This document shows, piece by piece, positions 1 to 5,859 of a DNA stretch of 9,406 nucleotides. The stretch lies in the IMG/VR virus record IMGVR_UViG_2648501787_000010; one strand, written 5' to 3'. Source of the DNA: a virus. Taxonomy: Duplodnaviria > Heunggongvirae > Uroviricota > Caudoviricetes. A program made the translations under genes and the position numbers. The notes under the pieces are model-generated. The model was not told the origin of the DNA and searched no databases. It was given only the letters and a program-made list of their open reading frames with translations. Within the stretch, counting starts at the first letter, position 1. Every line of letters begins with the position of its first letter.

Positions 1-282
1 CTACCGCCGCAACCGTTCCGGCTTCTTCCACTGGTAAGTATTTTTCGCGCTCTCCCTCCGTTGTTGAGAACGGCGACGGTATGCCAGCAACTCAAGGACT
101 CTTGTTCGTATGTTGCGCATATCCACGCCGTTAAGCTCAATACCATCACGGCGCATCACCTCAGCAACAACACGCACATAATTTTCAGCGGTCACGCTGT
201 CCGGCTGTGTGGCCTGTTCGTCATGCTGCTGGCTGATTCCGACGACGCGGCGGATTAATCCCAGTAGTTCGGCTTCAGTCAT
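1..282 (-). CDS. hypothetical protein (93 aa) immediately downstream of the Nu1-like small terminase gene
   Basis: Complete ORF: ATG at 280-282, stop TAG at 1-3 (minus). GAGGG Shine-Dalgarno-like motif a few nt upstream of the ATG. Sits where lambda would have the large terminase gene, but shows no resemblance to gpA N-terminus as I recall it. No recognisable motif. Confidence 0.5.
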   Translation of the reverse strand: MTEAELLGLIRRVVGISQQHDEQATQPDSVTAENYVRVVAEVMRRDGIELNGVDMRNIRTRVLELLAYRRRSQQRRESAKNTYQWKKPERLRR

Positions 283-355
283 TGTGCCCTCATCGTTCCG
301 ATAGCCTGGTGTCGTCGGGTCCTTCCTGGAATTATGGCCCGTTACGGGGCGGCGG

Positions 356-898
356 TTACTCGCCTTTGTTCTGTAGCAACTTCTCAGGCGCGTTTCCGGT
401 AGTTTCCATCAGGTAATCAGCCAGTATCTGTGGCAGGTTTTCGTCAAGTCTTGCACATGCGTTACATGCTTTGGCTATTTCCCTTTTTAGTTCATCCAGC
501 ATATACGGCCTTATATCGGGAAAGCGCCTTTGCATTGTGAGCGGGAGGCTGTCCATGATTGATGAAATCTGACTCGCTAGTTTTGAAATCGCGTAGATGC
601 AAAACTTTGTATCAATCACCTCGCCGCGTTCGCGCTCGTTTTTAAGTTCCTGCGCTTCCGCCTGGGCCGTCATTAATCTGATTCTTACGCGTAAAAGTTC
701 ATCATCATCAATCTCGCCTTTGTCGTTTGTAAGCTGGTTAATTGCATTGTTAACCCTATTGTCTATCACGCTAGCAACATCATAAAACGCCTCACGGCCT
801 TTACGCTCAACGGGAGTTACTCCCCACTTGTCGAACGCTGTCGCACTTACGCGGCAGCTTTGCGCCATAGTTTTTTTGTTCATCAGGTGCGATTTCAT
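356..898 (-). CDS. terminase small subunit, lambda gpNu1-like
   Basis: Translation aligns by eye along its length to lambda Nu1 as recalled from memory: N-terminal MNKK...KWGV..ERKGREAFYDVASVI versus lambda VNKK...NWQEQG..GGGKGNEVLYDSAAVI; central RLMTAQAEAQELKNERERGEVIDTKFCIYAISKLASQISSIMDSLPLTMQRRFP versus lambda RLTRAQADAQELKNARDSAEVVETAFCTFVLSRIAGEIASILDGLPLSVQRRFP. Lies directly downstream of a cos site, as in lambda. Start is ambiguous: in-frame ATGs at 898, 883 and 868 and a GTG at 910; 898 has a G-rich SD-like motif, while 883 gives the MNKK N-terminus that best matches lambda. Confidence 0.9.
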   Translation of the reverse strand: MKSHLMNKKTMAQSCRVSATAFDKWGVTPVERKGREAFYDVASVIDNRVNNAINQLTNDKGEIDDDELLRVRIRLMTAQAEAQELKNERERGEVIDTKFCIYAISKLASQISSIMDSLPLTMQRRFPDIRPYMLDELKREIAKACNACARLDENLPQILADYLMETTGNAPEKLLQNKGE

Positions 899-925: not shown

Positions 926-1000
926 GGTTGGTGTGTTGGTGTTATCTTTCCCTTTTTATTCATAGAGATAGAGCGAAAAACAAAACCACCACCACCAACC
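926..1000 (-). repeat. imperfect inverted repeat between cosN and the terS start; candidate cosB-like binding elements for the small terminase
   Basis: Plus strand 926-943 GGTTGGTGTGTTGGTGTT and 984-1000 AACCACCACCACCAACC (reverse complement GGTTGGTGGTGGTGGTT) are inverted copies separated by about 40 bp of AT-rich DNA. They occupy the position of lambda cosB (R sites) but do not resemble the lambda R-site sequence as I recall it. Confidence 0.45.
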
Positions 1001-1085
1001 CGAAAAGGCTCATAAATAGCGAAAATCCGCAAGGTCGCCGCCCCGTAGCCTGCCGGATCGCCGGAAAGGACCCGCCAGCCAGAAC
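1000..1085 (-). other. lambda-type cohesive end site (cosQ/cosN); predicted 12-nt cohesive end GGGCGGCGACCT at 1032-1043 on the minus strand
   Basis: Minus-strand sequence GGGTCCTTTCCGGCGATCCGGCAGGCTACG-GGGCGGCGACCT-TGCGGATTTTCGCTATTTATGAGCCTTTTCG matches the junction of the lambda right end (...GGGTCCTTTCCGGTGATCCGACAGGTTACG) and left end (GGGCGGCGACCTCGCGGGTTTTCGCTATTTATGAAAATTTTCCGG), recalled from memory, with only scattered substitutions. Orientation and distance to the Nu1-like gene match lambda. Confidence 0.85.
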
Positions 1086-3118: not shown

Positions 3119-3541
3119 TTAAAACGGTATGTTATCCCCGTACGGATCATCATTTCCCGCCTGTTGTTTTGCCCTGTTCAGTGCGTCAGTAGCCTGCCCC
3201 TGTTGACCTTTTTTGCCGCCCGGTCGCGCCGTTCTGGCACTGATTACACTGTCTGCGATAACCTGCCAGCCCTGCCGCGTTTCGCCGTTCTGGCCTGTCC
3301 ACTGGCTCACCTGCATATTACCCGCCACGCTCAGGAGTTCGCCTTTGTGGTGTTTTGCCAGTGCGTCGGCCTGTCTGCCAAACGCCAGGACAGATAACCA
3401 CATCGTCGCCGTTCCGTCATCTGCCTGGCTGCACGGCAGGGGAACCGCCATACCCGCCATCGCCATTTGTGTCCCTTTGCTGGTGGTCTTTAACTGCGGG
3501 TCAGCCACCAGCCGACCGTAAGCTGCTATCTGTGCTGTCAT
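3119..3541 (-). CDS. ssb: single-stranded DNA-binding protein (SSB-like), 140 aa, with C-terminal ...GDNIPF tail
   Basis: OB-fold pattern parallels E. coli SSB (GRLVADPQLKTT...G..MAMAGMAV versus GNLGQDPEVRYM...G.AVANITLA; W..V.AFG..A...AK...KG versus [21 protein letters not shown]), followed by a Gly/Gln-rich linker and an acidic tip ending IPF, like the DDDIPF tail of bacterial SSB. Start ATG (3539-3541) overlaps the stop of the upstream ORF by 4 bp. Confidence 0.85.
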   Translation of the reverse strand: MTAQIAAYGRLVADPQLKTTSKGTQMAMAGMAVPLPCSQADDGTATMWLSVLAFGRQADALAKHHKGELLSVAGNMQVSQWTGQNGETRQGWQVIADSVISARTARPGGKKGQQGQATDALNRAKQQAGNDDPYGDNIPF

Positions 3542-4104: not shown

Positions 4105-5859
4105 TTATAAAAACGCGTCGCACTCGTCTGTTGTTATTGCGTTAGTCTGCGTTACTCCCTTAACTTTCCGCGTAATATATTCATGTCCGTAAACTTTCGC
4201 GGCTGGCTTCATAGCCTTGCCAAAGTCATTTACGTTTAGCGGTTTGCTCCTGCCTGCGTACGCCATAAACGCCAGATAGACGCGGTAAAGGCTGTTTCTG
4301 GTCGTGTACTTCACTGAATCGCCACCGCCGCCCATCATCAGGCCGCGTGCTTCCTCCAGAAAATTCAGGAACTGGCAAAACTCAATAACCGGATCCGTCT
4401 GTTGCTTTATTGCCAGTGCTTCATCACCGTCACGCTGTTCAATGAGTAAAGCCCGTGCCTTTTCAGGGTCGGCAAAGTTCGCCAGCAAGCGGCGGATAAT
4501 GACAGGGATTTCAGCCGCGATCTTTTCCGGTAGCTCCCTGTCTTTTTCTGCCTCGCTTACGATGTTATCGAACCGGAATATCACCCGACGACGTGCCACA
4601 CCTCCGGCCCGTTCGGTGAATATCATCGGATTGTTATTGGTTGCCAGCACCACCGCCCTGATTACCGCCGTAAAACGCTTTTCATATTTCGGGTTAATTT
4701 CCACGGGGTCGCCGCCCGTGATTTTCTTGATGCCCGTTCCTTCGCCTGTATATTTCGGCTGGTCTGCCAGGACGATAAGCCGACTCCCGACAACCTGCGC
4801 ACGCCCACCAGCATCATCAAGCGATGTCATCTCAGCGCTTACTGTGTTCTGTTTCCCTGCCAGAAGGCTGGCTATGTGCGTAAATGTACTCTTGCCGCTC
4901 CCGCCGTCTCCTGTGGCCTCAATAAACATCTGCCAGTCGTACCGGTTCGCCATAATCATGTATAGCGCGGCACATATGCGCATCATCTTGCCCGGGTCTT
5001 TTCCGGCTGCGTGATCAAGCCATTTATGAAAGTTTGGCGCGTTGTCGCGGATATTCTCCCCTGGTACTGGCGGCGTGTACTCAATGCCGTTGTGTGTGGT
5101 GATCCAGTTATCAGGCGAGTGCGGGGAAAATTCCCCTGTTTTCAGGTCAAGCACGCCATTAGCGAACGGCAGCAAATCACCGGACGGCTCGCCCATTGGT
5201 TCGGCAATAACTTTTAACGCTTCAATGGCGTTACTGATTACGCGCTTGCTGAAAGTGGCTTTATGTTCTGAATAAATCGCCACCATTTCGCGGCTCAGTT
5301 CCATTGTGCTGACCGGACACCATACCCCGCCGCGCCAGACGTGGATGATTTCACTTTCCGGATGCACACAAACGCTATCAAAGCGATCGACAAGCAGTTG
5401 CGCGCGCTCACTGTCCGCCATCTGCGAAAGCTGCATTTTTTGCTTTACCGGAAGCTCAATAACCAGCCCATCAGAAAGATTCTGGCGTTCACGGGCCAGA
5501 TATTCGCGCCAGTTCTCCACCTTCTTACCGTGCATTCCCTCAGGGTAAAAATTTGCATCCTGTACGCCTGCCGCAGCCAGATTCTGACCAATCGCCTTAA
5601 TCATTACAGGCGCAAGATGTCCGGCTCTGTAGATACGAGCGTATGTTCGGCCTTCCGGTACAATCTGTAGATTATCCAGTTCGGATAGCTGCTGCTCTCC
5701 AAGCCACACAGGAGGCTCATTATCTCCGGCTGTACGCGCGTCGTGTTCCTGCCACTGTTTCGCGTGTGACCAGGCATCACTACCCGCAAAAATGATCACT
5801 TCGGTTTGTTCGTGTTTTATTCCGCGAGGCTGTTTTTTTACGTTCGGTGCCAGTTTCAT
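4105..5859 (-). CDS. P4-family DNA primase/helicase (replication initiator), 584 aa
   Basis: Walker A box GDGGSGKST followed by a hydrophobic-acidic Walker B-like segment (RLIVLADQ), with a large N-terminal domain, consistent with the P4 alpha / D5-type primase-helicase architecture. Start ATG 5857-5859 overlaps the stop of the upstream ORF (ATGA) and is preceded by a GGGGG SD. Stop TAA at 4105-4107. Confidence 0.9.
   Translation of the reverse strand: MKLAPNVKKQPRGIKHEQTEVIIFAGSDAWSHAKQWQEHDARTAGDNEPPVWLGEQQLSELDNLQIVPEGRTYARIYRAGHLAPVMIKAIGQNLAAAGVQDANFYPEGMHGKKVENWREYLARERQNLSDGLVIELPVKQKMQLSQMADSERAQLLVDRFDSVCVHPESEIIHVWRGGVWCPVSTMELSREMVAIYSEHKATFSKRVISNAIEALKVIAEPMGEPSGDLLPFANGVLDLKTGEFSPHSPDNWITTHNGIEYTPPVPGENIRDNAPNFHKWLDHAAGKDPGKMMRICAALYMIMANRYDWQMFIEATGDGGSGKSTFTHIASLLAGKQNTVSAEMTSLDDAGGRAQVVGSRLIVLADQPKYTGEGTGIKKITGGDPVEINPKYEKRFTAVIRAVVLATNNNPMIFTERAGGVARRRVIFRFDNIVSEAEKDRELPEKIAAEIPVIIRRLLANFADPEKARALLIEQRDGDEALAIKQQTDPVIEFCQFLNFLEEARGLMMGGGGDSVKYTTRNSLYRVYLAFMAYAGRSKPLNVNDFGKAMKPAAKVYGHEYITRKVKGVTQTNAITTDECDAFL

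Follow-up and report, generated by a model that had tools for sequence, protein, structure and literature searches.

A small terminal gene shared by enterobacterial phage-inducible chromosomal islands, and the array of box-plus-hairpin units that mostly starts at its stop codon

What stands beside a phage-like small terminase gene when the large terminase that one would look for there is absent? The question is raised by a 9,406-nt stretch of viral DNA (IMG/VR record IMGVR_UViG_2648501787_000010; the whole stretch is called the window below), in which a 93-codon open reading frame (ORF93; positions 1-282, minus strand) follows a gene for a Nu1-like small terminase subunit (TerS). A previous reading made from the letters alone (the sequence-only reading) had expected the large subunit (TerL) in this slot and had proposed that its occupant might be a packaging accessory or a helper-interference factor. 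Here we report that the window represents a phage-inducible chromosomal island (PICI) of the EcCICFT073 type, and that ORF93 is very probably a conserved terminal backbone gene of enterobacterial PICIs, orthologous to the gene cloned with c1505/c1506 of EcCICFT073 and to the gene that follows terL in EcCIEDL933. Recognizing ORF93 as part of the backbone, and not as a stand-in for the terminase, clears away a false lead. ORF93 is thus a further member of a catalogued family in a known satellite class, and the most interesting by-product of the analysis is the covarying repeat array that lies directly behind it in most islands.

The premise that a TerL belongs in this slot was wrong: TerL seems to be missing because the region was read as a phage with phage gene order, whereas the element is a satellite of ~10.5 kb that contains no TerL at all and uses that of its helper phage. 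No TerL, portal, protease, tail, or lysis gene appears in the gene list of the island. The suspicion that the element depends on a helper was right, as its gene set is that of the Gram-negative PICIs (Fillol-Salom et al. 2018, PMC6092414), i.e., an integrase at one end together with attachment (att) repeats, an AlpA regulator by int, unidirectional genes, a pri-rep primase, and no tail or lysis genes. A 99.9% identical copy lies between yejO and tRNA-Pro/yejM in E. coli MEW, where a 26-nt direct repeat, 10.5 kb apart, bounds the island. Extending the window leftwards from this copy revealed no gene beyond ORF93, which is thus the last gene of the island, and instead ~1 kb of non-coding DNA followed by the att repeat beside yejO. 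The stop codon of ORF93 indeed lies at the window edge, as had been observed, and about 25 of the 80 IMG/VR contigs inspected (L016-L095) stop exactly there too; the edge is therefore a gene-call boundary of prophage prediction and not a biological end.

ORF93 runs from an ATG start to a TAG stop at window positions 1-3 (minus strand), and its product is identical to RefSeq WP_000133431.1. The sequence-only description of the ORF itself held up well. It is short and well initiated, as both the ORF listing and the sequence confirm, with a Shine-Dalgarno GAGGG at 287-291 (291-287 on the gene strand) and a 4-nt spacer to the ATG (minus-strand leader CGATGAGGGCACA-ATG); its C-terminus is rich in arginine (10 Arg and 3 Lys in the last 35 residues); and it carries no obvious motif, with nothing significant in Pfam, NCBIfam, PADLOC, or PDB sequences by phmmer and profile search and no PADLOC defence family at E <= 0.1. 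Residues 1-93 do align with profile positions 1-93 of 93 of phrog_1561 (E 1.2e-56), and a shorter family, phrog_7271, also matches over residues 38-93. ORF93 is a real protein-coding gene under purifying selection, because its ratio of nonsynonymous to synonymous polymorphism (pN/pS) is 0.27, its homologues form >1,000 clusters, and its match to phrog_1561 is full-length. The ratio for codons 32-93 is 0.21 (46 distinct alleles), and synonymous differences are found in the invariant C-terminal codons among E. coli, Citrobacter, and Kluyvera copies. Judging from the 73-nt gap and the lack of a predicted promoter, we infer that ORF93 is cotranscribed as the final cistron of the helper-induced late operon.

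The family has a narrow, enterobacterial distribution. Its >1,000 clusters (at 90% identity) are all named hypothetical or "prophage protein", and an exhaustive phmmer search of 1.84 billion representative proteins returned 41 clusters only, mostly fragments, with no annotated relative; a one-genome-per-species search added Shigella, Kluyvera, Cedecea, and a probable contaminant only. The sequence-only reading had wondered whether ORF93 might prove to be a common conserved protein of unrelated function: common it is, and no unrelated function is known for it. A 601-nt probe (terL 3′ end plus the ORF) matched 1,309 of 5,426 complete E. coli genomes, about a quarter, with the partial matches mostly covering the ORF half. 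Among 50,697 phage records a single one, that of Klebsiella phage P12620-1, holds a homologue, and this partial match was rejected as a phage gene, as it lies between a truncated TerL and an integrase in a sparsely annotated 106-kb record and looks like an embedded satellite. One protein, P0149, is a fusion of a P27-family TerS N-terminus (the kind known from capsid-forming PICIs, cfPICIs) with the last 25 residues of ORF93 and probably arose by a terS-to-ORF93 deletion in some genome.

Across islands, ORF93 keeps its place while its upstream neighbour changes. In the 80 best IMG/VR loci, the gene upstream is a Nu1-like TerS in 47, RppA in 11, a cfPICI TerL in 11, and something else in the remaining 11, including a ClpP-major capsid protein fusion, DUF1441, or, in one island, the single-stranded DNA-binding protein (SSB) directly; in L026, an island without any packaging module, ORF93 has been kept. 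Further settings comprise the ClpP-capsid fusion and DUF1441 islands, TerS-type islands at the clpS site, and a remnant near fis. The two best-known relatives illustrate the pattern. The terminal gene of EcCICFT073 (WP_000133413.1) is 78% identical to ORF93, and the post-terL gene of EcCIEDL933 (WP_000133425.1; 1795 by our numbering) is 81% identical; both resemble ORF93 in their 93-aa length, terminal position, first box-hairpin unit at the stop codon, and shared island backbone. They differ in what precedes them, which is RppA plus an inverted cos2 in EcCICFT073 and TerL in EcCIEDL933, compared with a Nu1-like TerS plus half of cos2 in the window. In EcCIEDL933 and a Shigella cfPICI the homologue starts 14 nt after terL (14-17 nt across the TerL-bearing relatives), so that ORF93 follows TerL rather than occupying its slot, and with 93 aa, no Pfam match, and a genuine TerL (PF03354 and PF20441) upstream of its relatives, ORF93 was rejected as a TerL itself. 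Integrase identity between the window island and EcCIEDL933 is only 25%. Shared across packaging modules and dissimilar integrases alike, ORF93 is therefore an island backbone gene and not a terminase substitute.

On its other side, ORF93 is followed in five loci (L027, L044, L052, L071, and L085), after 600-850 nt, by lambdoid prophage genes, namely a portal fragment (C-terminal) and the gpC protease gene, which indicates a satellite inserted in the portal gene of its helper, i.e., the "helper-embedded satellite" arrangement (bioRxiv 10.1101/2022.07.18.500453). A Kluyvera capsid-forming island (L008 8370-9821) has a short ORF93 homologue, two degenerate repeat units, and then a HEC-04/AriA-like AAA ATPase (PADLOC E 5e-49), which places a defence hotspot directly beyond the ORF93 module; the region past the packaging operon has been described as variable and expected to hold immune systems (He et al. 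2025, bioRxiv 10.1101/2025.02.11.637232).

In most islands, the ORF93 stop codon leads straight into a same-strand array whose 1-8 units, all in one orientation, measure ~48-54 nt each. A unit consists of a conserved box, (G/C)(G/C)TAAC-N3-YTGATATTYYCG, followed a few nucleotides later by a 5-7-bp hairpin with a 3-4-nt loop that begins with A, and then by a G-rich tail, often GGCGCGG. The TAA or TAG of the first box is the stop codon of ORF93 itself, and this also holds for the homologues from Citrobacter (46% identity) and Kluyvera (short form). The window retains the opening 5 nt of its first unit (GGTAG, stop codon included; positions 1-5, minus strand; nhmmer match at L001 12005-11982), and the remainder of this array lies beyond the window edge, at L001 ~11560-12005 (minus strand); other arrays are at L003 9608-9830, L010 15579-16000, and L006 8278-8490. 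In 42 of 53 loci the first unit (E <= 1) overlaps the stop codon, to which two degenerate cases can be added. Array location is exclusive: all 141 matches that a hidden Markov model of the box gave in the 53 downstream regions were on the strand of the ORF, and all 24 of its matches in 234 kb of assorted loci fell within ~450 nt downstream of ORF93 homologues.

The hairpins diverge in sequence and keep their pairing. Stems include CCTCA/TGAGG, CCCCC/GGGGG, CAGCC/GGCTG, CCTGC/GCAGG, TTCGCC/GGCGAA, GCGCA/TGCGC, and GGCCCA/TGGGTT, and 35 of the 43 distinct units form at least five base pairs at the fixed stem position, where 4.9 would be expected (at most 15 in any of 500 shuffles). Among 20 aligned units, compensatory (two-sided) changes were found in five of six pairs, and 87.5% of cells were paired, against at most 53% when the partner was slid. 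The covariation score was 0.554, against 0.145 in shuffled alignments (0/500 shuffles as high); as repeat units are paralogues, however, these unit counts represent non-independent events. No Rfam family matches the downstream array, and as far as the searches made here show, the covarying array is undescribed. Not every island has it: 9 of the 53 loci lack a unit, and four or five GTGAC repeats at helical spacing and a terminator-like hairpin stand directly after the ORF there. This GTGAC block (10-11-bp spacing, with the terminator-like hairpin and its T-run ~70 nt further on) occurs at L001 ~11550-11600 (minus-strand reading GTGACGGAGGGTGACAACCAGTGACACGCCGTGAC), in L006, and in L055-L062, either after the unit array or, where units are absent, right after ORF93; it looks like a putative protein-binding iteron block.

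The predicted protein is small and alpha-helical. From the single sequence, AlphaFold placed helices at residues 3-22, 32-45, and 55-82 (predicted local distance difference test, pLDDT, 76; predicted template modelling score, pTM, 0.62), and from 20 sequences it gave core helices at 28-45 and 52-85 with block pLDDT of 86-91. The model combines an acidic N-terminal helix, predicted with less confidence, and a helix-loop-helix core at ~28-85 that is confidently predicted; the short family members (60-63 aa) correspond to this core alone. Invariant or near-invariant residues gather in the loop and at the start of helix 3 (G47, L50, N51, D54, I58, and R59), continue with L66, A67, R70, and R71, and mark the C-terminal TY-x-WKKPERLR(R), in which Y83, W85, and P88 are invariant and K86, K87, R90, L91, and R92 nearly so. 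Fold searches found generic helical bundles only. A PDB profile match to the atypical homeodomain of HMBOX1, with helix 3 on the recognition helix, was non-significant (E 0.4-0.7) and is a lead toward nucleic-acid binding rather than evidence of it. Several candidate relationships were tried and set aside. The likeness of RRR...QWKK to an arginine-rich motif of the lambda N type reached an hhalign probability of 0.3% over eight columns; a relic of the Nu1 N-terminus reached 0.1%; nothing pointed to a relic of the TerL N-terminus; and lambdoid head proteins from the CFT073 helper were compared by eye at their C-terminal ends, with no resemblance that would suggest a scaffold-like C-terminus. 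ORF93 is not an Rpp protein either, with no BLAST similarity to RppA and no PDB sequence match to RppC, and with only c1503 blocking lambda.

Published genetics can be read for the EcCICFT073 orthologue once the primers are mapped. Genes c1499-c1507 were cloned singly in pBAD18, and lambda plaques were reduced by c1503 (rppA) only (Fillol-Salom et al. 2019, PMC6739421). We mapped the primers of that study on the CFT073 sequence (L003), where the c1505 amplicon (9274-9647) covers the entire orthologue (9331-9612) and the c1506 amplicon (9333-9845) begins at its third base. Since overexpression of neither clone cost plaques, the orthologue alone does not interfere with lambda. By the same mapping, the marker exchange c1504-07::cat removes L003 ~9052-9958, so that cos2, the orthologue, and the whole repeat array are gone, and this construct served as the "wild-type" island in lambda and phage 80 transfer experiments (PMC6739421). 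The orthologue is therefore unneeded for induction, excision, packaging, transfer, and establishment in the laboratory. In EcCIEDL933, mutation of "hypothetical gene 1792" severely reduces transfer (bioRxiv 10.1101/2022.09.08.507074). Numbering from the major capsid protein (1786) makes 1792 a small ORF between hnh and terS and not the ORF93 homologue, so its transfer phenotype cannot be carried over to ORF93; the homologue, 1795 by this numbering, is unmentioned in the cfPICI paper (bioRxiv 10.1101/2022.09.08.507074).

What, then, might ORF93 do? We tentatively propose that it is a non-essential, nucleic-acid-binding accessory factor acting on the adjacent array. Such a role is favored because the coupling of stop codon and first unit is tight and ancient, the array occurs nowhere else in the loci searched, and the C-terminal helix and tail are basic and aromatic. 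We infer that ORF93 would contact the structured array, which in most cases starts at the gene's own stop codon, through its C-terminal tail and the long, basic helix before it, and that the array would be bound either as DNA or as RNA, where it forms the untranslated 3′ end of the late transcript. Binding might tune events at the right end of the island, such as stability or termination of the late transcript, and might also affect how far transcription reads on toward the defence-gene hotspot or, once the island has been excised as a circle, toward attP and int. A more specific version, which we regard as rather improbable, holds that ORF93 and its array form a previously undescribed satellite-specific protein-RNA (or protein-single-stranded DNA) module, e.g., a nut-like one, in which the Arg-rich, Trp-containing C-terminus would read the hairpins and so set late-transcript termination, stability, or read-through.

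Other explanations have to be weighed against this proposal. In one, closest to the packaging accessory of the sequence-only reading, the invariant C-terminal peptide would dock on the TerL, TerS, portal, or prohead of helper or island and aid packaging of island DNA, comparable to lambda gpFI or an adaptor of the CpmB type of Staphylococcus aureus pathogenicity islands (SaPIs). Wherever an island has a DNA-packaging gene (Nu1-like TerS, RppA, DUF1441, or TerL), ORF93 comes immediately after it, it belongs to the same late operon, its invariant C-terminal peptide is typical of docking motifs, and it is satellite-specific and absent from phages. However, the same protein accompanies lambda-type (Nu1/Rpp) and HK97-type (HNH/TerS/TerL) systems that share no components, its variable stretch (residues 69-84) shows the same variants with all packaging module types, it persists in L026 where no packaging module is left, it lacks similarity to Nu1 and RppA, and the c1504-07::cat island transfers without it; we consider a packaging or morphogenesis role unlikely, as we do an adaptor role on some other conserved protein of helper or host. 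Equally doubtful to us is an interference, anti-phage, or anti-defence factor whose target is something other than lambda or phage 80, be it a different helper, a host defence system, or a rival phage or satellite. Satellite specificity, wide occurrence, and a position at the border of a 3′ hotspot with defence genes, an ATPase of this kind coming next in Kluyvera, are what such a factor would show. Yet the overexpressed clones covering the orthologue left lambda plaques undiminished (PMC6739421), which disfavors the helper interference that had been suggested; PADLOC gave no match; ORF93 is highly conserved, unlike variable hotspot cargo; and the cfPICIs that bear it are reported to be harmless to their helper.

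The order of the excised circle (ORF93, non-coding region, attP, int) would also suit a recombination directionality or architectural factor acting on the adjacent att arm, as ORF93 is small and basic and sits beside the att-proximal non-coding arm with direct repeats nearby. This we hold to be very improbable: the window island and EcCIEDL933 have different att sites as well as dissimilar integrases, yet they share the boxes and a highly similar ORF93, the repeats lie 300-900 nt from the att core, the c1504-07::cat island still excises, transfers, and integrates, and AlpA-family proteins already fill the directionality role in such islands. Finally, a chance ORF or a decaying remnant kept for overlapping DNA signals might be imagined, given that the 3′ end overlaps the first box, the 5′ leader is a cos relic, and no phenotype has been reported. 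This reading is extremely unlikely and is largely refuted by purifying selection together with the synonymous changes in invariant C-terminal codons, by full-length conservation in all those clusters with start codon and Shine-Dalgarno sequence conserved, and by confident AlphaFold helices obtained from a single sequence. Taken together, roles as a terminase substitute, an Rpp-like protein, a lambda-interference factor, an essential packaging factor, an excisionase, or a known defence protein are excluded or disfavored.

The proposed nucleic-acid-binding factor invites comparison with known systems. The likeness to lambda N and nut (boxA plus boxB) is architectural only, in that a protein with an Arg-rich helix stands beside units of a box followed by a GC-rich hairpin with an A-rich loop; unlike in lambda, the basic segment of ORF93 is C-terminal, the array lies at the 3′ end of the operon, and the box differs from boxA, and no homology was found. 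With the Rpp proteins, ORF93 shares small size, satellite specificity, the same operon, and a position adjoining cos, whereas Rpp proteins have 144-153 aa and a winged helix-turn-helix (HTH) like that of lambda TerS, bind the helper TerS, and block lambda. Small all-helical proteins of satellites and plasmids are represented by SaPI CpmB, other small satellite adaptors, and ColE1 Rop, the last of which binds RNA hairpins by structure and not by sequence. The general sequence and fold searches, none of which was aimed at these proteins, gave no sequence match and no significant fold match between ORF93 and CpmB-type adaptors or Rop.

PICIs are widespread and move virulence and defence genes, and ORF93 is among the few genes common to Rpp-type, TerS-type, and capsid-forming islands. 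As it is dispensable for laboratory transfer, the expected pay-off is a regulatory or competitive refinement and not a core mechanism, and the array offers a testable handle on the 3′ end of the late operon, beside the defence hotspot.

The packaging module next to ORF93 bears on how the island would be packaged. The gene that ORF93 follows (356-898, minus strand; 180 aa by the RefSeq start, with an alternative GTG start at 910) is Nu1-like as had been stated, matching PF07471 (Phage_Nu1; E 9e-24) and phrog_57 (E 4e-53) and being 37% identical to lambda Nu1 over 179 aa. Because a full-length Nu1 homologue, C-terminal part included, stands where EcCICFT073 has RppA, an "own TerS plus helper TerL" strategy is suggested rather than Rpp-type redirection. 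A lambda-type cos site (cosQ-cosN; 997-1074, minus strand), 88% identical to lambda over 78 nt and with a perfectly matching cosN (GGGCGGCGACCT at 1043-1032), is flanked by the second alpA-like gene and the Nu1-like gene; it is upstream of and co-oriented with the latter, as in lambda. This similarity predicts lambdoid helpers for the island. Between cosN and the terS start, a cosB-like region (921-1005) contains a 13-nt inverted repeat with arms at 921-933 and 993-1005 (TTTCGGGTTGGTG and CACCAACCTGAAA on the gene strand), and a related motif, CACCACCACCAC, is present in cos1 of EcCICFT073; the repeat is a candidate cosB element with putative binding sites for the island TerS. An inverted relic of a second cos site (cosQ-like plus the left half of cosN; 318-354, plus strand), in which GTTACGGGGCGGCG at 341-354 is identical to lambda, corresponds to cos2 of EcCICFT073. 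This relic makes up the ORF93 leader and is truncated at the 3′ end and stop codon of the Nu1-like gene; at this place EcCICFT073 has a complete inverted cos2. A RefSeq "hypothetical protein" at 898-1107 (69 aa, TTG start, no Pfam match) overlaps the cos site and is probably not a gene.

All large genes of the window are on the minus strand. At the end opposite ORF93 is the tyrosine integrase (8165-9406), with the expected Pfam domains, adjoined by the AlpA regulator (7433-7639; PF05930). A DUF4222 protein, recognized by a profile match, comes between AlpA and the primase in the gene list, and the primase/replicase (4105-5859; D5_N and DUF5906) is 95% identical to Pri of EcCICFT073. Profile matches further identify the island SSB (3119-3541), a lambda gpE-like major capsid protein (1805-2845), a lambda gpD-like head decoration protein (1454-1795), and, within the packaging module, a second AlpA-family HTH protein (1100-1444). 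A 346-aa ORF with a GTG start at 6388-7428 (minus strand) is probably spurious; it has no RefSeq annotation, and RefSeq places there an Icd-like gene, a plus-strand YlcI/YnfO gene, and an Icd-like pseudogene. The att direct repeat of the island is found at L001 10974-10999 and 21486-21511 (26 nt, one mismatch), ~120 nt from tRNA-Pro and outside it.
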